Position numbers and translations under genes: made by a program. 64,000 nucleotides of DNA, taken from Enterobacteria phage KhF2. The DNA lies in sequence record KT184314.1; one strand, 5' to 3'. Of the stretch, positions 1,937-33,617 are shown piece after piece (the stretch's first letter is position 1; each line of letters begins with the position of its first letter). The notes below the pieces were generated by a model that saw nothing but the letters and a program-made list of their open reading frames with translations, ran no database searches and was not told where the DNA came from.

Positions 1937-1954
1937 AAATTCCTCTTGCTTATC

Positions 1955-2030
1955 TGGCGCAGGATAAGGGATTCGAACCCCTATTAACAGCTTCGTAGAC
2001 TGTTGCTCTATCCATTTGAACTAATCCTGC
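1955..2030 (-). tRNA. tRNA-Arg (anticodon ACG)
   Basis: Acceptor GCAGGAT/ATCCTGC, anticodon stem ACAGT/GCTGT with loop CTACGAA, T-loop TTCGAAT, CCA encoded. Confidence 0.6.
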
Positions 2031-2035
2031 AAAAT

Positions 2036-2113
2036 TGGTGTTCCAAGACGGATTCGAACCGTCACTAGTACAAGGTTTGAGCTTGCATCCTCTGCCAATT
2101 GGGATACTGGAAC
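2036..2113 (-). tRNA. tRNA with anticodon CAA (Leu by anticodon) but class-I-like short variable loop
   Basis: Acceptor GTTCCAG/TTGGAAC with A73; anticodon stem GCAAG/CTTGT with loop CTCAAAC; only a 6 nt variable region. Confidence 0.45.
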
Positions 2114-2114
2114 A

Positions 2115-2193
2115 TGGTACTCACTAAAGGACTTGAACCTTTTTCTTCATCTTGTAAGGGTGATGTTTTACCATATAAACTAAGCGAGTATGA
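2115..2193 (-). tRNA. tRNA-Val (anticodon TAC)
   Basis: Acceptor ACTCGCT/AGTGAGT, D-stem GTTT/AAAC, anticodon loop CTTACAA, A73, CCA encoded. Confidence 0.55.
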
Positions 2194-2195
2194 AA

Positions 2196-2283
2196 GAGGT
2201 CTGGAGTTGTGCCGCTAACTCAACTCCGTGGAATTTGTTACGGTCTTCAGTTGACTCAAAGCGGTCTTTCACTTGACCTCTGA
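2196..2283. ncRNA. structured RNA candidate / non-canonical tRNA-like element
   Basis: Closing stem GAGGTC...GACCTC plus internal hairpins (GGAGTTG...CAACTCC; CCGT...ACGG); no canonical T-loop found. Confidence 0.25.
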
Positions 2284-2285
2284 AT

Positions 2286-2362
2286 TGGTGCTGCTCACAG
2301 GACTCGAACCTGCATTTCCATCCTTACAAGGGATGTGTAATAGCCAATTATACGAAAGCAGC
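2286..2362 (-). tRNA. tRNA-Thr (anticodon TGT)
   Basis: Anticodon stem CATCC/GGATG with loop CTTGTAA; T-loop TTCGAGT; CCA encoded. Confidence 0.6.
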
Positions 2363-2368
2363 ATTGTT

Positions 2369-2443
2369 TGGAGCATCCAGAGGGAATCGAACCCTCAACC
2401 TCAGTTTGGAAGACTGTAATTTTCCCGTTTAAACTATGGATGC
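2369..2443 (-). tRNA. tRNA-Gly (anticodon TCC)
   Basis: Acceptor GCATCCA/TGGATGC; anticodon loop CTTCCAA; T-arm GAGGG-TTCGATT-CCCTC. Confidence 0.6.
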
Positions 2444-2449
2444 ACTAAT

Positions 2450-2526
2450 TGGTGGAGAAGCAGGGAATTGAACCCTGTACTTAAGTTTGCAAAACTTATG
2501 TTTTAACCATGTAAACTACATCCCCA
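2450..2526 (-). tRNA. tRNA-Ala (anticodon TGC)
   Basis: G3:U70 wobble pair in acceptor stem (Ala identity element); anticodon stem TAAGT/ACTTA with loop TTTGCAA. Confidence 0.6.
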
Positions 2527-2531
2527 ATGTC

Positions 2532-2607
2532 TGGTACAGGTGGAGGGAATTGAACCCATCGTCTTACTGATTAAGAGTCAGCCGCATAACCATTTTGCTA
2601 CACCTGC
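2532..2607 (-). tRNA. tRNA-Lys (anticodon CTT)
   Basis: Acceptor GCAGGTG/CACCTGT; anticodon stem GCTGA/TCAGT with loop CTCTTAA; T-stem only 3 clean pairs. Confidence 0.5.
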
Positions 2608-2614
2608 ATTAATT

Positions 2615-2692
2615 TGGTAGGAGACAAGGGATTCGAACCCTCAAACACCAACTTCTAAGGATGGTAGGTTTACCAATTACCATCAATCTCCC
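2615..2692 (-). tRNA. tRNA with anticodon TAG (Leu by anticodon), short variable loop
   Basis: T-arm GAGGG-TTCGAAT-CCCTT; anticodon stem CCATC/GTTGG (one mismatch) with loop CTTAGAA; A73. Confidence 0.4.
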
Positions 2693-2948
2693 ATTAAATC
2701 TTTTTAGAGAACTTCTAAGAACCTGAGCAACAAGGTTCCACAACAAGCGACTAATAACCTTAGAAGCCCTCTAAAAAGACCTAAATAGGTCTTTGCATAG
2801 TCTTGTTTAATCCGGTGACTAGAACCTTTGGAGAGCTTGATATTATCTCTTCTCCGTGACACCTACTAGGTGCTTTGACAGTGTACGACAATACACGAGG
2901 GATAAACCGACAATGCGAACAAGCATGGACGGAGTAAATCTTATTAGG

Positions 2949-3036
2949 CGGTAAGTAAAGGAGTCGAACCCTCACCGTATCTCTACAGTGGCAACTGTTT
3001 TCAAGACAGTTTGGCTACCATTAGCCGCTACCTACC
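2949..3036 (-). tRNA. tRNA-Ser (anticodon TGA), class II with long variable arm
   Basis: 88 nt; acceptor GGTAGGT/ACTTACC, G73; anticodon stem ACTGT/ACAGT with loop CTTGAAA; long extra arm; CCA not encoded. Confidence 0.55.
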
Positions 3037-3049
3037 CCTAATAAGACTT

Positions 3050-3132
3050 TGGCATGGGACGGAGGAGTTGAACCCCTTTGAAACGGTTTTGGAGGCCGTT
3101 GCTCATGCCTTAGAGTCTTAACATCGTCCCAT
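3050..3132 (-). tRNA. tRNA-like, possible Trp (anticodon CCA), atypical 5' region
   Basis: Good T-arm and acceptor ATGGGAC/GTCCCAT with G73; anticodon-like stem-loop ACGGC-CTCCAAA-ACCGT; about 7 extra nt between acceptor and D-arm. Confidence 0.3.
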
Positions 3133-3274
3133 ATTATAATTCGAAGCTTACCCTGTTATCTCAACACTGTCAAGCTTCTTCTCAGATTATTTACATGTTC
3201 TGGAAAACATGAGATACAGACCACCTCCCTACAGGAAGACCCGCTAAGGCCGTCTAAGTAATCTGCTAACTATT

Positions 3275-3356
3275 TGGTCGAGGCGGCAGGACTCGAACCC
3301 GCATACTCCACTTACTCGGTTAACGGCGGTTTAGAAGACCGCTGAGATACGCCCCG
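3275..3356 (-). tRNA. tRNA-like, possible Arg (anticodon TCT), atypical architecture
   Basis: Acceptor CGGGGCG/CGCCTCG, T-arm GCGGG-TTCGAGT-CCTGC, perfect stem-loop GCGGT-CTTCTAA-ACCGC; D-arm not identifiable, 23 nt between anticodon arm and T-arm. Confidence 0.3.
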
Positions 3357-3604
3357 TAATTATCTTTAAAGACTCTCTTAGAAAGCCCTTAAAGATGCCC
3401 ACCTTATTAATCATACCGTGGGCGAGTACGCCAAATTCTTTAATGAGGGATTGGAAGACCTCACTGGTGTTTAGCCTATCAAGCTACTGCCAGAAAAACA
3501 TTGTCGTTTGCATTTATTTTAAATTTGCAAAATAGACGCTACGCAACGAAAACTAAGGTTACTATAAAGCAGTCACATCTCAATGTCAACAACTTTATTG
3601 AAAT

Positions 3605-3680
3605 TGGTACTGGTAGGTGGAATCGAACCACCGATGTTCCCTTATCAGGGGAGTGTTATAACCTTCTTAACTATACCAGC
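3605..3680 (-). tRNA. tRNA-Ile (anticodon GAT)
   Basis: Acceptor GCTGGTA/TACCAGT; T-arm GGTGG-TTCGATT-CCACC; anticodon loop CTGATAA. Confidence 0.55.
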
Positions 3681-3681
3681 T

Positions 3682-3758
3682 TGGAGGTTCAGATGGGAAT
3701 CGAACCCACATTCATAGGGCTTATGAGACCCTTGCATTACCTTATCTGCGACTGAACC
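3682..3758 (-). tRNA. tRNA-Met (anticodon CAT; elongator, initiator or Ile2 not distinguished)
   Basis: Acceptor GGTTCAG/CTGAACC; anticodon stem AGGGT/GCCCT with loop CTCATAA. Confidence 0.55.
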
Positions 3759-3762
3759 ATAT

Positions 3763-3838
3763 TGGTAGAAGTGGAGGGATTCGAACCCATCGCCTGTCAG
3801 ATTAAAAGTCTGCCGCATCACCATTCTGCTACACTTCC
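3763..3838 (-). tRNA. tRNA-Lys (anticodon TTT)
   Basis: Acceptor GGAAGTG/CACTTCT; anticodon stem CAGA/TCTG with loop CTTTTAA. Confidence 0.5.
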
Positions 3839-4035
3839 ATTAAATTATCTTTGTAGATAAGCTACCCAGACTTGCTTAAGGTCTGTAGCGATGTGCCTTG
3901 TTGGGTTTAAATCTAGAATTTACCCTTTCACCCTTTGTGGTCGCATACTCACAGGTAAGCTTAATAACTTATCTACAAAGATAATTACCAGACCGTTGTT
4001 TATCATCTTAAGTGCTACCATTACACCAACTCGAC

Positions 4036-4063
4036 ATCTGCCGAGTGAAGGAATCGAACCTTC
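4036..4063 (-). pseudogene. tRNA 3' fragment (T-arm plus acceptor 3' strand without a matching 5' half)
   Basis: GAAGG-TTCGATT-CCTTC T-arm followed by ACTCGGC-A; no complementary 5' acceptor strand within 100 nt. Confidence 0.25.
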
Positions 4064-4270
4064 GCCTTTTCTTTACCGGAGAAATAGATTGTTTAAGTTT
4101 TGCTGTAAACGGTCTTCTGTAAATTTGTTGAGCCAGACCAAGTTTTAAATTTTTTCAAAATTAAATTGGCTTGAAATTTTCATACGTTCTTGATGTATTT
4201 GGTCTTCTGCTCCTTTAAAGAATACTCGTAAGAACTCTTTAAGGGAGGGGCTAAATAGCCCTCTCAAAAT

Positions 4271-4347
4271 TGGCGGCTACGATGAGACTTGAACTCACAT
4301 CATCTCCCGTGACAGGGGAGTATTTTCTCCAGTTAAACTACATAGCC
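4271..4347 (-). tRNA. tRNA-Asp (anticodon GTC)
   Basis: Acceptor GGCTATG/CGTAGCC with G73; anticodon stem CTCCC/GGGAG with loop CTGTCAC. Confidence 0.6.
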
Positions 4348-4352
4348 TTTAT

Positions 4353-4440
4353 TGGTGTGCCGTGTAGGAGTCGAACCTACCGAGTCTCAATGACAAGGGA
4401 TTTACAGTCCCCACCGCTACCATCTACGGGATAACGACAC
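4353..4440 (-). tRNA. tRNA-Tyr (anticodon GTA), class II
   Basis: 88 nt; anticodon loop CTGTAAA; long variable arm; T-arm GTAGG-TTCGACT-CCTAC. Confidence 0.6.
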
Positions 4441-4448
4441 ATTTAATT

Positions 4449-4525
4449 TGGCGGTTAGTCAGGGATTCGAACCCTGTGCCATTCGCTTAACAGGCGACCG
4501 CACATACCTTATGTGCTTCCTAACC
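4449..4525 (-). tRNA. tRNA-Asn (anticodon GTT)
   Basis: D-arm GCAC-ATAAGGTAT-GTGC; anticodon loop CTGTTAA; G73. Confidence 0.55.
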
Positions 4526-4602
4526 TTAATACATTGCCAGACCGTGTTTTTTCTTTTATCCGCAAAAAGTATTTTGTTGCTGAATACGGTCTTCTGCAAA
4601 AT

Positions 4603-4679
4603 TGGAGGCGGGTGCAGGAGTCGAACCTGCCGATACCATGCTAATGAGACATGTGAGACGCCCTTTCTCTATACCCGCA
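4603..4679 (-). tRNA. tRNA, anticodon probably CAT (second Met/Ile2-type), fold imperfect
   Basis: T-arm GCAGG-TTCGACT-CCTGC; candidate anticodon stem CATGT/GCATG with loop CTCATTA (unusual T37). Confidence 0.4.
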
Positions 4680-4768
4680 ATTCTTAATGACCAGACCAAA
4701 TATCTTCTTTGTCCGATTAACTTTCAGATGAGTAGATTAAGTTTGCTGTAATTGGTCTTCTGTCAAAA

Positions 4769-4847
4769 CTGGCGTTCCAGAAGGGATTTGAACCCTCAGA
4801 TATCCACTTTGAAAGAGTGGTGACTTTACCATTTTGTCTACTGGAAC
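4769..4847 (-). tRNA. tRNA-Glu (anticodon TTC)
   Basis: Acceptor GTTCCAG/CTGGAAC with G73; anticodon stem CCACT/AGTGG with loop CTTTCAA. Confidence 0.55.
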
Positions 4848-4854
4848 ATTAATT

Positions 4855-4930
4855 TGGTCTCTGTTGGAGGACTTGAACCTCCGGCCTTACCGCCCCAAAC
4901 GGAACGCTCTACCAAGCTGAGCTAAACAGA
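4855..4930 (-). tRNA. tRNA-Pro (anticodon TGG)
   Basis: Canonical D-arm AGCTCAGCTTGGTAGAGC; anticodon loop TTTGGGG; T-arm GGAGG-TTCAAGT-CCTCC. Confidence 0.6.
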
Positions 4931-5096: not shown

Positions 5097-6512
5097 TTAC
5101 CAGATGTAACGGTCAATCATTACTGCTTTGAGCATTACGCTGATTGGGTCAAACTTCTCACCACCAAGCAGAGCTTTTAAAGTGGCTGGAGAGAAACCAG
5201 ATACCATTGCTACACCGTTATCCTTAACAGACACTTCGCAAGTACCACTACGGTTTGCTAAGTACCAGAATACCAGTTGTGGCATTTCGTATCCAGCTTT
5301 TTTGTACTTACTACGAATTGCTTCAAAGTTTGTACGACCATTTGCACCGTCAACCTGATTGAACTCCATATCAGAGAAGATGATAAGCTTACTTGGCATA
5401 TCTTTCTGAGTCAAGTTGTTTCTCTTACCTGTCTCAAGGATGCGGTCAAAAGCTGCTTGTAAGTTAGTTGAACCGTATTCAACATGTCGCATTACTTGAC
5501 GGTGACGGTTCTTTAAATCGCCACTCAGTTCGATGAAATGAGGGTTTGTTGAATAAACCATTAACTCGTTCTTAAAGCAACCTGTATTGCGTTCTGCTAC
5601 ATACAAGGCAAGTGATACACCAATATCAAGGGCAGTAATTGAGCCAAAATTCACCCAAGACATTGAACTTGAAACATCAGACATACATAGAATGTTTTCA
5701 CCCTCTGCCATCCAGTTTGGTAGTGCTTTCCACTGCTCATTAGCAACATCTGCATTACCATACTTAACAGATTTAATCACATCGTATGGGTAAACAGCAC
5801 CAGCATTAATCTTAGCCTCACCCTTTGATAATGACTCGATGTAAGCTTTGTAGCGTTCTCCATCTTTACGGTTAAACAGTTTTTGGTAACGTGCAGCAGC
5901 AAGTGAAGGAATCTTACTGTAGTCAATCTTACCAAACTCATTAGCAGAGATTTTTTGCTCAACTGTATCAGATAGTGCAGACAACAGTGTGCGGTACTCT
6001 TTCTCACTTAAGTTTGCAAACTTGCAGAAACGTTTTACAAACTGCTTATGACGTGGTTTGACTCGTGGTAACCACTTAGCTGCCAAACCTGCTGTTGCAG
6101 GGTCTAGTAATGCTGCTTCTAAATGTTTGAAGGCATCTGTCTCGAAACGAGTACCTACGAAGATTTTGAAGTCATCAAAACGACCAAGTTCTGCAATCTT
6201 ATCCATAATACGAAGAACCTGTGTAGGCTCTAAAACTTTGTCTTCGATTGCTTGAAGTAAAACAGTTCGGAAAGCTTTACGCTCACCCATACCTTCTCGT
6301 ACATCTCGCATATGCAGTAAAATACGAACTGCAACATCAACACCCTCACGCAAAGCTTTGTAGAACAGGTCTGGTAAGATTTCTACATTGCTACGGCTTG
6401 AACCAGCAGCTTTGTAAAAGTCTACCAGAGCAGACATTGATGAAGTATGGTTTACAGCACCATTTTCAGTTCGACCTGCATGAAGGTGCGCATGTTTAAA
6501 TAATTCGCTCAT
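5097..6512 (-). CDS. vWA-like domain protein (putative MIDAS motif D-x-S-x-S)
   Basis: 471 aa ORF; motif LCMSDVSSSM resembles a von Willebrand A metal-ion site; no other recognisable motif. Confidence 0.4.
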   Translation of the reverse strand: MSELFKHAHLHAGRTENGAVNHTSSMSALVDFYKAAGSSRSNVEILPDLFYKALREGVDVAVRILLHMRDVREGMGERKAFRTVLLQAIEDKVLEPTQVLRIMDKIAELGRFDDFKIFVGTRFETDAFKHLEAALLDPATAGLAAKWLPRVKPRHKQFVKRFCKFANLSEKEYRTLLSALSDTVEQKISANEFGKIDYSKIPSLAAARYQKLFNRKDGERYKAYIESLSKGEAKINAGAVYPYDVIKSVKYGNADVANEQWKALPNWMAEGENILCMSDVSSSMSWVNFGSITALDIGVSLALYVAERNTGCFKNELMVYSTNPHFIELSGDLKNRHRQVMRHVEYGSTNLQAAFDRILETGKRNNLTQKDMPSKLIIFSDMEFNQVDGANGRTNFEAIRSKYKKAGYEMPQLVFWYLANRSGTCEVSVKDNGVAMVSGFSPATLKALLGGEKFDPISVMLKAVMIDRYIW

Positions 6513-6594: not shown

Positions 6595-6966
6595 TTATTT
6601 TTTGAGGGTTGCAACAGCAGAGAACGTTGGTTTGTTATCTGTCTGAGACTGACCGCCGTTATCAGGGGTCTTCTTAGTGTCTGCTGCAATTGCTTTCATC
6701 TCACCTGCTGAGTGAGTCATGATAGTTTTACCGACCTCAATCATACTCTTGATGGTTACGTCATCTGTGTTTAACCCGAACTCTGCAAGCTTAGCAGCAT
6801 CCCTTGTAACAATCGCTTCAAATAACTTTGCAGCAAACTCAGCAGAATTGTCAATGGTCAGTTGAGCTTTTACAAGTGAGCTTTTGTTACGAGAGCCTTT
6901 TGGTCTTCCAGATGGGTTTCCAGACTGGCCTTTTTTAAACTGGCCTTTGTTTGTTCTGTTTTTCAT
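6595..6966 (-). CDS. hypothetical protein with N-terminal basic GNPSGRPKG motif
   Basis: ORF track; motif KGQSGNPSGRPKGSRN. Confidence 0.5.
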   Translation of the reverse strand: MKNRTNKGQFKKGQSGNPSGRPKGSRNKSSLVKAQLTIDNSAEFAAKLFEAIVTRDAAKLAEFGLNTDDVTIKSMIEVGKTIMTHSAGEMKAIAADTKKTPDNGGQSQTDNKPTFSAVATLKK

Positions 6967-8175: not shown

Positions 8176-8222
8176 GTGTGAATAGGGGCTGATGCCCCTT
8201 TAACTATTTATAAGGATATTTA

Positions 8223-8594
8223 ATGAAAGCTAAGAGTGCAAAAGACTTTTATTGCTTCCTACAATCCTATATCAATTCCGTGCAAAATGGTGAAAGGTAC
8301 AACCTTAATGATGTTATCCCGACACCTTTGACATGGAGACTAAGTAAATGGCCTGAAGAAGATATTACACCAACAATCGAACAACGCACCTACAAACCCG
8401 AAATCAATATTCCAGACTCTGAGAATCTATTATATCCAATGTTCCATATTGTTGGTCTTGGAAGATTCCTTATGGATATTCAGTATGTAATTGGTAAAGG
8501 TTATAAGGTTAAAGGTATTGTTGTTGGTGATGTATCTCCGCATCACAAAGGTTATTTTAGACTAAACGCACATTTAGAGGCTAAAAAGAAATGA
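8223..8594 (+). CDS. hypothetical protein, paralog of the N-terminal domain of the next gene
   Basis: Alignable by eye to residues 1-100 of 8591..9475 (shared ...RY...W...KP...LLY...MDLQY...). Confidence 0.55.
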   Translation: MKAKSAKDFYCFLQSYINSVQNGERYNLNDVIPTPLTWRLSKWPEEDITPTIEQRTYKPEINIPDSENLLYPMFHIVGLGRFLMDIQYVIGKGYKVKGIVVGDVSPHHKGYFRLNAHLEAKKK

Positions 8595-9475
8595 TTAAAG
8601 CAAAGACTTACCCAGACTTCAAAGAGTTTGTGAAGGGCTTCATTGCAAACGTAAAGGCTGGTAAGAGGTATGATTTTAGAACATATCAAGAGGCTATTTT
8701 ACCACTTACCTATAGCTCGTATTGGCCTGAAGCTGATATTGCAGAAGTTGAGAAGTTTGACTATAAACCAGACTATAAAGTTCCTTTTAGTGATGAACTC
8801 CTTTACAGTGTTGGTGCACAGATGAGAACTGCTGATTTCTTCATGGATTTGCAGTATGCAATCATCAATGGTAAAGATGTTGACACTATTTACTGTGAAT
8901 GGTTGGCAAGAGTTAAGCCGTTCTCAATGTTGAATGCTAAGCTGAAGGATGCTATCAAGCCACCAGCAATTACTCAGCAACCAACAGGTCAAACAGTCAA
9001 TGAGGGTGGCACACTTACCCTAAGCATTCTAGCAACTAACGCCACTGGATATCAGTGGAAGAAGGATGGTGAGGATATCCCTAGTGCCAATTCTGCAACT
9101 TACACAAAACAGTCAGTAGCACCTTCTGATGCTGGTTCATACACTTGTGTTGTATCTGGAGAGGGTGGAACAAGTGTTACCTCAGATGCAGCAACAGTGA
9201 CTGTGAATGCACTTCCAGTAATCACTCAACAGCCAACCAATCAAGAAATCACTGAAGGTGAAACCTTAACGCTGAATGTTGTGGCAACAGGTGCGACAGG
9301 TTACCAGTGGAAGAAAGGTGAGGAAGACATCCTCGATGCAACTACTGCAACTTACACCAAAGAAGGTGCAACCGCTGCTGATTCAGGAAGCTACACCTGT
9401 GTAGTGACTGGTGCAGGTGGTTCTGTAACGTCTAATGCTGCAACAGTTACTGTTAACCCAGCAGGGGAGGCATAA
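8591..9475 (+). CDS. protein with N-terminal paralog domain and two tandem Ig-like repeats
   Basis: Two about 80 aa repeats (TQQPT.Q...EG.TLTL...ATGATGYQWKK...SGSYTCVV.G.GG...TVTVN) typical of Ig-like folds. Confidence 0.55.
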   Translation: MIKAKTYPDFKEFVKGFIANVKAGKRYDFRTYQEAILPLTYSSYWPEADIAEVEKFDYKPDYKVPFSDELLYSVGAQMRTADFFMDLQYAIINGKDVDTIYCEWLARVKPFSMLNAKLKDAIKPPAITQQPTGQTVNEGGTLTLSILATNATGYQWKKDGEDIPSANSATYTKQSVAPSDAGSYTCVVSGEGGTSVTSDAATVTVNALPVITQQPTNQEITEGETLTLNVVATGATGYQWKKGEEDILDATTATYTKEGATAADSGSYTCVVTGAGGSVTSNAATVTVNPAGEA

Positions 9476-9939
9476 TGCAACTCTCAAGAAAAGGTTTAGA
9501 AGCTATTAAGTTCTTCGAAGGTCTTGAGTTAGAGGCTTACGAAGACTCTGCCGGAATCCCAACAATCGGGTATGGTACAATTCGTATTGACGGAAAACCT
9601 GTTAAGATGGGAATGAAAATCACCGCTGAACAAGCTGAACAGTATCTTCTCGCGGATGTTGAGAAGTTTGTTGCAGCAGTGAACAAAGCTATCAAGGTTC
9701 CAACTACTCAGAATGAGTTCGATGCACTTGTAAGTGAAACATACAACATCGGTATCACAGCTATGCAGGATTCCACATTTATCAAGCGCCACAATGCTGG
9801 TAATAAGGTAGGTTGTGCAGAAGCTATGCAGTGGTGGAACAAGGTTACAGTCAAAGGTAAGAAGGTCACTTCAAACGGTCTTAAAAACAGACGTAGGATG
9901 GAAGCTGACATTTATCTTGACAGTGTATACCCAAAGTAA
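9475..9939 (+). CDS. GH24 lysozyme (T4 e-type endolysin)
   Basis: E-x8-D-x5-T catalytic triad pattern (EGLELEAYEDSAGIPTIGYG) matching T4 lysozyme; followed by terminator. Confidence 0.8.
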   Translation: MQLSRKGLEAIKFFEGLELEAYEDSAGIPTIGYGTIRIDGKPVKMGMKITAEQAEQYLLADVEKFVAAVNKAIKVPTTQNEFDALVSETYNIGITAMQDSTFIKRHNAGNKVGCAEAMQWWNKVTVKGKKVTSNGLKNRRRMEADIYLDSVYPK

Positions 9940-9951
9940 TATCTTCATAGG

Positions 9952-9978
9952 CTCCTTCGGGAGCCTTTTTTATTTTCT
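9952..9978 (+). terminator. rho-independent terminator
   Basis: GGCTCC-ttcg-GGAGCC followed by TTTTTTATTTT. Confidence 0.7.
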
Positions 9979-31835: not shown

Positions 31836-33617
31836 TTAAAGCTGCTTGTCAATATTATTTCGAATATCACCAAGAGTTGTGTATCCGAACTGCTCAGAGT
31901 CACTAAAGACTAGACGTAAAGCACAAGCTGGATGTTCAAGTGCATCTGCAAAGCTCTGGAACCCATAGCCATCTACAGCTTTCAGATTTTCACCATCCCA
32001 CATAGGTGCTACACCACCAAAAGCAGACTTCTTAACACCACTATCTGTTTTAGGGTCTTTTGCAAGCATAATCTCTTTACCACCAATGCTTGCAAGGGTT
32101 GCTTTGACAGCAAATGCAAAGGTGTCACGAGTCATGTACTGGTAAGTGTAAGAACCTACACCAAACACTACGTTAGAGCTTGCAAAACCCATTTCATACA
32201 AACGCTTCAGTATTTCATTTGCACGTTCCAACGTGATAGAGTCGCCATAAATAAGTCCAATATGCTCATCCAGTACCTTAAAACCTTTAGAGTTAATAGT
32301 TCCTCCAAAGATGTTATACAGTGTCTTGATAGCTCCATCAATCTCAGCTACAGGACGTGTTACAACGTTTGCAGAACCAACCATATAAGCATTTTTCAAC
32401 ATCACTGTATCAGCAACTTCAAAGTCTTCTCTGTCAACAACCATCTCGTAGCCTTCTGACAGTAGCCATCCAGCAATACCATAGTTGATGTTCTCAAGCT
32501 TCATGTTCAGAACAGCATTCAACATTGTGTCACTGGCTTCCAGCTTGCTTAGGTGCTCGTAATAAGCCTTCTTAGCACATTCTAAGTGGATTGCTTTATA
32601 ACCTGTGACAATATGTACAGGGTCTCCAGAGTCAGGGCGAATTACCAGTTTGCCATCACGTCCCATAATTTCTTTACGAAGTGCTGGTAAGATTTCTGAC
32701 ACAGTTCTCCAGAAGTTATAAGTATCTGAAACAATGCTTGCAATACCTGTTGGGTAAGTTTCTGTTAAGAAACGACGGAAGGTTTGTAACTCACCTTTAA
32801 AGCGTCTTTCTTCTTCAATCAACTCATTACCACCTTCCCAAGCAATGTTTGCACACATTACAGAGTGCTCAGTGGCTGGTACAGAACTACCAATATCAGA
32901 GATTGGGTAGGACTGTCCATAGATTCGTTTAGCCGTGTATACAGCAGGGAAGCTATCAGTCCCTTTAAAGCTGGTTAAGTGACCTACAGCGTTAAATGCG
33001 TCATCAGTAAAGCCGGACATACCACGCATAGCAAAATCATGGCACTGATAAGGTAAATGTAAGTCATTGTCACAAGTAAGGTCAGCCCACTTCTTACAGA
33101 TGCGTTTGTAATGCAATGCAATAGTTGCAATGGTGCAAGCCTTCCAAATTTCAGCAGAGAAAGCATCTTCCAGATAACCTGCTACCCAATGAAAACCTGA
33201 AACAGTGTTCTGAAAGACAATCATCGGGACACGCATTGGAACAACTGTGCCTTCTTCTACAGCGTATACTTCAACTGGTAGATAACCTAAGTCGTGAAGT
33301 GCTTCCCAATGCTCTCGACCGATAGCATCTTTACCCAGAACACCATTCATGACTTCTAAGATTTCATCAATGGCTTCTTTTTTATCACGTTCAAAGAAAG
33401 TGGCATTCCAGTGGTCTATCAAGTAATCTTTAACAAAACGTTGAATACCAAAAGCCACTACACCGTCAATTGCTAAGGGGCTGTTAAACCATTTGTCGCT
33501 ACGTGGTGTCAGATTGAACATCAAGTACTCTGTTGCGCTAGGATACTGGTAAACATGACCAGATTTGTAAGCATCTGCATTTAAACCTGCTGGTACTGCA
33601 TAAAGTGATTTAGTCAT
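31836..33617 (-). CDS. nicotinamide phosphoribosyltransferase (NAMPT/NadV)-like protein
   Basis: 593 aa; recalled similarity to the NadV/NAMPT family (not motif-verified); paired with a PRPP-synthetase-like gene. Confidence 0.6.
   Translation of the reverse strand: MTKSLYAVPAGLNADAYKSGHVYQYPSATEYLMFNLTPRSDKWFNSPLAIDGVVAFGIQRFVKDYLIDHWNATFFERDKKEAIDEILEVMNGVLGKDAIGREHWEALHDLGYLPVEVYAVEEGTVVPMRVPMIVFQNTVSGFHWVAGYLEDAFSAEIWKACTIATIALHYKRICKKWADLTCDNDLHLPYQCHDFAMRGMSGFTDDAFNAVGHLTSFKGTDSFPAVYTAKRIYGQSYPISDIGSSVPATEHSVMCANIAWEGGNELIEEERRFKGELQTFRRFLTETYPTGIASIVSDTYNFWRTVSEILPALRKEIMGRDGKLVIRPDSGDPVHIVTGYKAIHLECAKKAYYEHLSKLEASDTMLNAVLNMKLENINYGIAGWLLSEGYEMVVDREDFEVADTVMLKNAYMVGSANVVTRPVAEIDGAIKTLYNIFGGTINSKGFKVLDEHIGLIYGDSITLERANEILKRLYEMGFASSNVVFGVGSYTYQYMTRDTFAFAVKATLASIGGKEIMLAKDPKTDSGVKKSAFGGVAPMWDGENLKAVDGYGFQSFADALEHPACALRLVFSDSEQFGYTTLGDIRNNIDKQL

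Follow-up and report, generated by a model that had tools for sequence, protein, structure and literature searches.

Organization of the locus

The window, a 64,000-nucleotide stretch of DNA from Enterobacteria phage KhF2 (KT184314.1), carries two overlapping open reading frames on the same strand, at 8223-8594 (123 aa) and 8591-9475 (294 aa), directly followed by a gene for a GH24 endolysin. The source phage is a Felixounavirus, and the region containing the pair is 99.9% identical to Enterobacteria phage KhF1; many further genomes of Felixounavirus, wV8 and those of the O157 typing phages among them, share 94-96% identity with it. The three genes form a compact unit with the following features.

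8185..8198 (+), hairpin GGGGC-TGAT-GCCCC followed by TTT (GGGGCTGATGCCCC), the upstream boundary of the unit, read from the sequence
8212..8216 (+), Shine-Dalgarno sequence AAGGA, 6 nt 5' of the ATG of the first gene, read from the sequence
8223..8594 (+), predicted stand-alone copy of a capsid-binding domain (CapBD), a 123-aa paralog without Ig domain (BLASTP, phmmer, AF2, Foldseek)
8577..8580 (+), Shine-Dalgarno sequence GAGG of the second gene, within the 3' end of the paralog
8591..8594 (+), ATGA start/stop overlap of the two genes, the second being in the -1 frame relative to the first
8591..8956 (+), CapBD of Hex-Dec, residues 1-122, with 98-99% identity to 9NCF chain S over its modelled part
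8960..9211 (+), Ig repeat 1, I-set type, residues 124-207 (Pfam, AF2, Foldseek)
9212..9475 (+), Ig repeat 2, residues 208-294 (to 9472), plus the stop codon (Pfam, AF2, Foldseek)
9475..9939 (+), GH24 endolysin, third gene of the unit (Pfam Phage_lysozyme, 4.5e-41)
9949..9966 (+), intrinsic terminator at the end of the three-gene unit, also annotated in KhF1

The spacer between the hairpin and the ATG of the first gene (stretch 8185-8222) is only 24 nt long and holds TATTTATAAGGA. The same hairpin sequence is given as a rho-independent terminator in the Felix O1 paper, and an analogous hairpin lies 5' of the paralog in a divergent locus (L034). A promoter scan found no convincing sigma-70 promoter before the gene pair. 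At the other end, the stop codon of the second gene and the start codon of the endolysin overlap by 1 nt (TAATG). A first reading of this DNA, made from the sequence only, had placed the pair directly upstream of the lysozyme and away from any block of structural genes, and both points hold. The large open reading frames screened in the window (rIIA/B, NAMPT, ribonucleotide reductases, exonuclease, primase-helicase, DNA polymerase, and ligase) include no structural gene, and the authors of the Bas63 study likewise report a distance of more than 10 kb between the homologous gene and the structural module (PMC12609058).

The Ig-bearing gene as the capsid decoration protein Hex-Dec

In phmmer searches against the PDB, the product of 8591-9475 matched, over residues 1-290, chain S of 9NCF (E 1e-247) and chain S of 9C2D/9C3A (E 1e-167). 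9NCF is the capsid of phage Bas63 (PMC12609058) and 9C2D that of Shigella phage Sf14 (PMC11821841). The gene is thereby identified as that of the Felixounavirus Hex-Dec, a Hoc-like decoration protein of capsid hexamer centres. In Hex-Dec of Bas63 and its Sf14 counterpart gp20, the N-terminal ~118-122 residues constitute the CapBD, which occupies, as a monomer, the centre of those hexamers of the T=9 head that adjoin pentamers; the other hexamers are without density in both maps, and the Ig domains, unresolved in the maps, are thought to project outward like those of T4 Hoc (PMC12609058, PMC11821841). In Sf14, Arg79 and Arg107 form salt bridges to Asp221 of the major capsid protein (PMC11821841).

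The KhF2 protein closely resembles these characterized homologues. Its CapBD is 98-99% identical to that of Bas63 (bas63_0124, 9NCF chain S) and about 87% identical to that of Sf14 gp20, and it shares with the Bas63, Sf14, and Felix O1 proteins the two arginines, the I-set type of Ig domain, and the genomic slot, 5' of the endolysin and 3' of the paralog. Among 21 sequences, Arg79 (Sf14 numbering) is invariant and Arg107 conserved in at least 90%, and the dN/dS of this domain is as low as 0.03-0.04. From the 98-99% identity with the Bas63 domain we infer that the KhF2 protein would also bind pentamer-adjacent hexamers. Display on the capsid surface, one of the options raised by the sequence-only reading, agrees with the position of the homologues solved on capsids (9NCF_S, 9C2D_S) and with the detection of Felix O1 gp36 (31.6 kDa) in virions by mass spectrometry, with 44% coverage. 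As for another option, an association with the lysozyme or with enzymes acting on carbohydrates, nothing beyond the shared operon position speaks for it. In a PhageMaP knockout screen, Bas63 could do without gene 124 on most hosts but had more need of it on strain S17-1.

We thus envisage that the 122-aa N-terminal domain of Hex-Dec would plug, as a monomer, the 60 pentamer-adjacent hexamers of the T=9 head, that Arg79 and Arg107 would pair with the Asp ring of the major capsid protein, and that the domain would hold a flexible string of acidic I-set Ig domains off the head, in the fashion of T4 Hoc. Like Hoc, Hex-Dec is a dispensable monomer at hexamer centres, with an acidic Ig-like string projecting from the head and a proposed role in adhesion, aggregation, or environment sensing (PMC12609058). 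However, the PHROG profiles called "Hoc-like" match only its Ig part (residues ~120-292), and its CapBD is N-terminal whereas that of Hoc is C-terminal; it is also larger, topologically distinct, and pseudo-C2 symmetric, without sequence similarity to that of Hoc (PMC12609058). Hex-Dec works like Hoc, yet it is not a member of the Hoc family.

The folding of the two repeats as beta-sandwiches, on which the sequence-only reading had staked their Ig-like character, is borne out by the models. AF2 predicts two beta-sandwiches with pLDDT ~95, and a Foldseek search with this model retrieves tandem Ig structures (Robo, MALT1, titin; E 1e-16 to 1e-13). The repeats match the Pfam families Ig_3 (1e-22), Ig_2 (3e-18), and I-set (1e-15). 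In the full-length AF2 model the CapBD reached a pLDDT of only 30-60, its alignment being shallow; this domain is covered by the solved structures. Between the two repeats, identity is 67% for the amino acids and 60% for the nucleotides; the first is orthologous to repeat 1 of Bas63 (90% identity) and the second to its last, fourth repeat (94% identity), and the dN/dS of the first Ig domain is 0.09-0.13. Over 33 loci, the Ig-bearing protein measures 210, 294, 372-377, or 460-461 aa, which corresponds to one to four repeats. In the one-repeat alleles (L022 and others of 210 aa), the single repeat is a chimera of the first and the last, with 80-87% identity to both. These alleles indicate that repeat number probably changes by in-register (unequal) recombination among existing repeats.

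The KhF2 allele, with two Ig repeats, differs in this respect from those of Bas63 (four) and Sf14 (three), but it has the size of Felix O1 gp36 and is thus not new. Indeed, the Ig-bearing gene as a whole is already known as a solved and named decoration protein, and the variation of its Ig domain number within the genus, from one to four, has been described before (PMC12609058).

An Ig-less paralog of the capsid-binding domain

The upstream gene offers more novelty. The claim that 8223..8594 and the N-terminal part of 8591..9475 are tandem paralogs is confirmed by BLASTP (38% identity over 101 aa, E 1e-16), by the cross-family PHROG matches of the two open reading frames (E 4e-15 and E 8e-17), and by phmmer, with which the short protein retrieves only two chains from the PDB, both Hex-Dec (E 6e-12 and 2e-11). 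In a multiple alignment, the homology runs through the entire ~120-aa domain as far as the LNAxL helix and is not confined to the 100 residues noticed initially, with 31 invariant columns common to both families. The 123-aa protein has no match in Pfam. Its AF2 model, built on 30 sequences, reached a pLDDT of 72.7 and a pTM of 0.72, and the only significant Foldseek matches of this model in the PDB are 9c2d_S and 9ncf_S (prob 1.0, TM 0.63-0.67), across the whole modelled CapBD, for which reason we consider the paralog a stand-alone copy of the capsid-binding domain. Its reading frame stops at the LNAxLEAKKK helix, the very point from which Hex-Dec continues into the linker to its first Ig domain. 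In all paralogs aligned, Arg79 is replaced by Gly and Arg107 by His or Gln.

Equivalents of this protein are Felix O1 gp37, Bas63 0125, and Sf14 gp21, grouped in PHROG 4463 ("unknown function"); in most records they are labeled as hypothetical or, wrongly, as tail protein. The paralog is retained in 232 of the 252 phage records matched (at least 80% query coverage), including the Mooglevirus Sf14 (gp21) and Bas63 (0125), and is lacking in the other ~20. An 87-kb metagenomic contig carries a divergent version (P0098, 45-48% identity) beside its own Hex-Dec (P0099) and lysozyme, in the same gene order. The paralog thus appears to persist in three lineages of the Ounavirinae (Felixounavirus, Mooglevirus, and one further lineage) and would have been kept under selection for as long as these have been separate. 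Its length is steady, at 122-124 aa, across the 33 loci mentioned above. With a dN/dS of 0.07-0.19 it evolves under purifying selection, 2-4 times faster than the CapBD of Hex-Dec, and this dN/dS together with the conservation down to 45% identity rules out a pseudogene or a spurious reading frame. The segment aligned to the capsid-contact region (VGLGxFLMDxQYV) is kept even in P0098, the most divergent paralog, and its conservation suggests a constrained, possibly binding, surface. Net charge was also considered as a clue to binding at the acidic hexamer centre and proved uninformative, the pI of the paralog varying from 5.4 to 9.1 between lineages.

Despite this long retention, the paralog seems dispensable, since it has been deleted in the lineage of Shigella phage Z31 and L032 and is absent from Kolesnikvirus and three other lineages. 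In Z31 and L032, which are viable phages, it is reduced to a remnant of ~190 bp in which the 5' and 3' ends of the gene are joined and the ATG is lost (positions 2805-2998 of both L003, the Z31 locus, and L032). The Hex-Dec gene of Z31 is also split (134 + 55 aa); that of L032 is intact and has one Ig repeat.

In Felix O1, RT-PCR detected the transcripts of ORF 36 and ORF 37 with a common peak at 60 min, late and alongside those of the structural genes. Felix O1 gp37 is absent from the published list of virion proteins, which does include proteins of 9.7-13.7 kDa. The paralog can likewise be inferred to be absent from the virion proteome of VpaE1, because this proteome adds only three unrelated proteins to the Felix O1 list, and it is not among the structural products of Sf14 (PMC11821841). 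Neither the paralog nor a duplication is mentioned in the text and supplements of the Bas63 and Sf14 studies (PMC12609058, PMC11821841), and the supplements on Sf14 mass spectrometry and on Bas63 give no data on it. The PhageMaP main text discusses g124 of Bas63 only and never g125, and the wV8 proteome paper covers the tail fibre only. A possible link with the triggering of a defence system was discarded, since the DRT7 trigger of Bas63 is the unrelated Bas63-035. The Ig-less paralog is thus a modest novelty, undescribed in the literature searched.

We know of no tandem Ig-less paralog of Hoc in T4.

Origin of the gene pair

Homologues of the CapBD are rare. A profile search over 1.84 billion representative proteins yielded only 12 clusters with this domain; a word-indexed protein search had retrieved close relatives only, and the profile search reached Kolesnikvirus and several metagenomic lineages. 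All CapBD clusters that could be placed occupy the same slot, between an ORF of ~190 aa and the lysozyme. In four outgroup lineages, this slot contains just one CapBD gene.

Kolesnikvirus phiEa104 gp038, CapBD and a Big_2 domain
P0104, CapBD and a Big-like domain
P0102, CapBD and one I-set domain
P0103 (L036 5001-5462), CapBD and a K/S/E-rich tail without Ig domain, single copy in the slot before the lysozyme

The CapBDs of Kolesnikvirus (phiEa104 gp038 / phiEa21-4) and of P0102-P0104 are homologous to that of Hex-Dec (E 1e-9 to 4e-5 against the profile) but carry other display modules and have no stand-alone companion: an HMM scan of all six frames found no second CapBD copy in the four outgroup loci. 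In a neighbour-joining tree, the paralogs form one clade, and they branch in the pattern shown by the CapBDs of Hex-Dec from these same phages. The simplest reading would be one old tandem duplication, either of the anchor module or of the full gene followed by loss of the Ig part. The Ig-less copy is most probably the derived one, having evolved faster afterwards, because the outgroups have a single CapBD gene which, in three of the four, already bears an Ig-like domain. The idea put forward from the sequence that one of the two paralogs had gained two Ig-like repeats therefore had the direction wrong. More generally, this family offers a clean case of a decoration anchor used as a free module, combined with I-set, Big_2, or Big-like domains, or with no domain at all.

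Possible functions of the Ig-less paralog

Our overall explanation, in which we place considerable confidence, is that the locus encodes Hex-Dec together with an old tandem duplicate of its CapBD that may have a role at the capsid. Gene 8223-8594 is a CapBD-only copy with its fold preserved, still under selection and expressed late within the compact unit that also yields Hex-Dec. The mature virion probably does not contain the paralog in stoichiometric amounts, because it is absent from the virion lists and the other hexamers show no density. We propose tentatively, and with clearly more doubt than for the explanation as a whole, that capsid hexamers are still its target, and that its action there is transient or involves few copies. 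It could sit in hexamer centres while the head is being assembled, or adjust how many sites Hex-Dec fills. The conserved fold, the late expression, the lasting coupling to Hex-Dec, and the retained contact stretch favour such a capsid role. A more specific version, somewhat less likely still, is that of a dedicated regulator or placeholder on hexamer centres, either in proheads or on the 20 facet-centre hexamers, that would set where and in what number Hex-Dec is loaded. If true, this would amount to a two-gene "display plus blank" decoration system, which has not been described for Hoc-like proteins. A small protein that competes for the Hex-Dec site, or prepares it, would change the number of display sites per head, and Felix O1-like phages serve in the typing of Salmonella and E. 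coli, in biocontrol, and as display scaffolds.

On the other hand, the paralog may not bind the capsid at all, because none of the paralogs has kept either of the two arginines with which Hex-Dec is anchored. The fold might have been reused for a role unrelated to the capsid, for instance binding to a host or phage protein, its place in the operon being merely historical. Besides the loss of the arginines, the faster evolution relative to the Hex-Dec CapBD, the absence from the virion lists, and the dispensability in some lineages would all fit with such a change of role. Nevertheless, transcription is late with the structural genes and not early, the tight coupling to Hex-Dec has been kept for as long as the duplicate has existed, and neither Pfam nor Foldseek relates the protein to any other family, so that we regard this reuse as rather unlikely.

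The paralog could also be a stable second decoration protein, a bald plug seated on the 20 facet-centre (true 3-fold) hexamers that lack Hex-Dec. It has the same fold as the known hexamer plug, it is expressed late, and its contact residues differ, as might be expected for a 3-fold hexamer of different shape; moreover, a monomer on a strict 3-fold axis would presumably be smeared in icosahedral maps. However, the Bas63 and Sf14 maps are without density precisely on the facet-centre hexamers (PMC12609058, PMC11821841), and the paralog is missing from the Felix O1 mass spectrometry list despite the small proteins detected there, presumably from VpaE1, and from the Sf14 structural products (PMC11821841). 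A stable plug is accordingly improbable; a transient or low-copy action on the capsid, the reading that we retain, is less so.

Gene junction and annotation

A GAGG Shine-Dalgarno sequence and a start/stop overlap are present at every junction between the two genes examined, the ATGA of KhF2 being replaced by ATGATTAA in CHB7-like phages and by TAATG in the divergent L034. The overlap implies that the two genes are likely translationally coupled, and coupling, not frameshifting, would be the conserved feature of the junction. A programmed -1 frameshift at T-AAA-AAG (8582-8588), which would fuse two CapBDs and the Ig repeats in a single protein, could be imagined from the -1 frame of the second gene and from the location of AAAAAG just past the last stop codon of that frame, but a search for frameshift signals, suggested along with the sequence-only reading, showed in 33 loci that this sole slippery-like motif is not conserved. 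The heptamer is imperfect (its first base is T) and exists only in part of Felixounavirus; it is GAA-AAG in wV8-like phages, AAG-AAA or AAT-AAA in Mooglevirus, and GTA-AAA-ATA in L034, and it is replaced in CHB7-like phages, whereas the overlap and the Shine-Dalgarno sequence persist where the motif is replaced. In addition, a single nucleotide separates the Shine-Dalgarno sequence from the motif that follows it, a position unsuited to a -1 stimulator, and the size given for Felix O1 gp36 is 31.6 kDa and not about 45 kDa, all of which makes such a frameshift hardly credible.

Equally negligible is the chance that the Ig-bearing product belongs to the tail, in keeping with the labels "tail protein" or "major tail protein" of most GenBank records and PHROG 3995, or an Ig module serving the adjacent endolysin, because two cryo-EM structures put its homologue on capsid hexamers, the Bas63 authors call the tail annotation found in most genomes wrong (PMC12609058), and the lysozyme has an ORF and a start codon to itself. 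In the KhF1 record, the Hex-Dec ORF (KT184313, 73440-74324; L001 7092-7976) is unannotated and appears as a gap between the coding sequences of the paralog and the lysozyme.

Neighbouring genes

Two genes of the window located upstream of the decoration/lysis unit are divergently oriented from it: one at 5097-6512 (-), for a DUF2828/DUF7788 protein (PHROG 850, "RNA-binding protein"), and one at 6595-6966 (-), for a DUF5681 protein. This pair is kept beside the CapBD slot in the Ounavirinae-like loci for which upstream sequence is available (L034-L036, L039). Farther away, the window contains a block of ~20 tRNA genes at ~1950-4930 (-), with positions transferred from the KhF1 annotation of the near-identical locus, and, at 31836-33617 (-), a nicotinamide phosphoribosyltransferase gene (PHROG 448, E 2e-201), which belongs to the NAD-salvage genes reported for Bas63-like phages.
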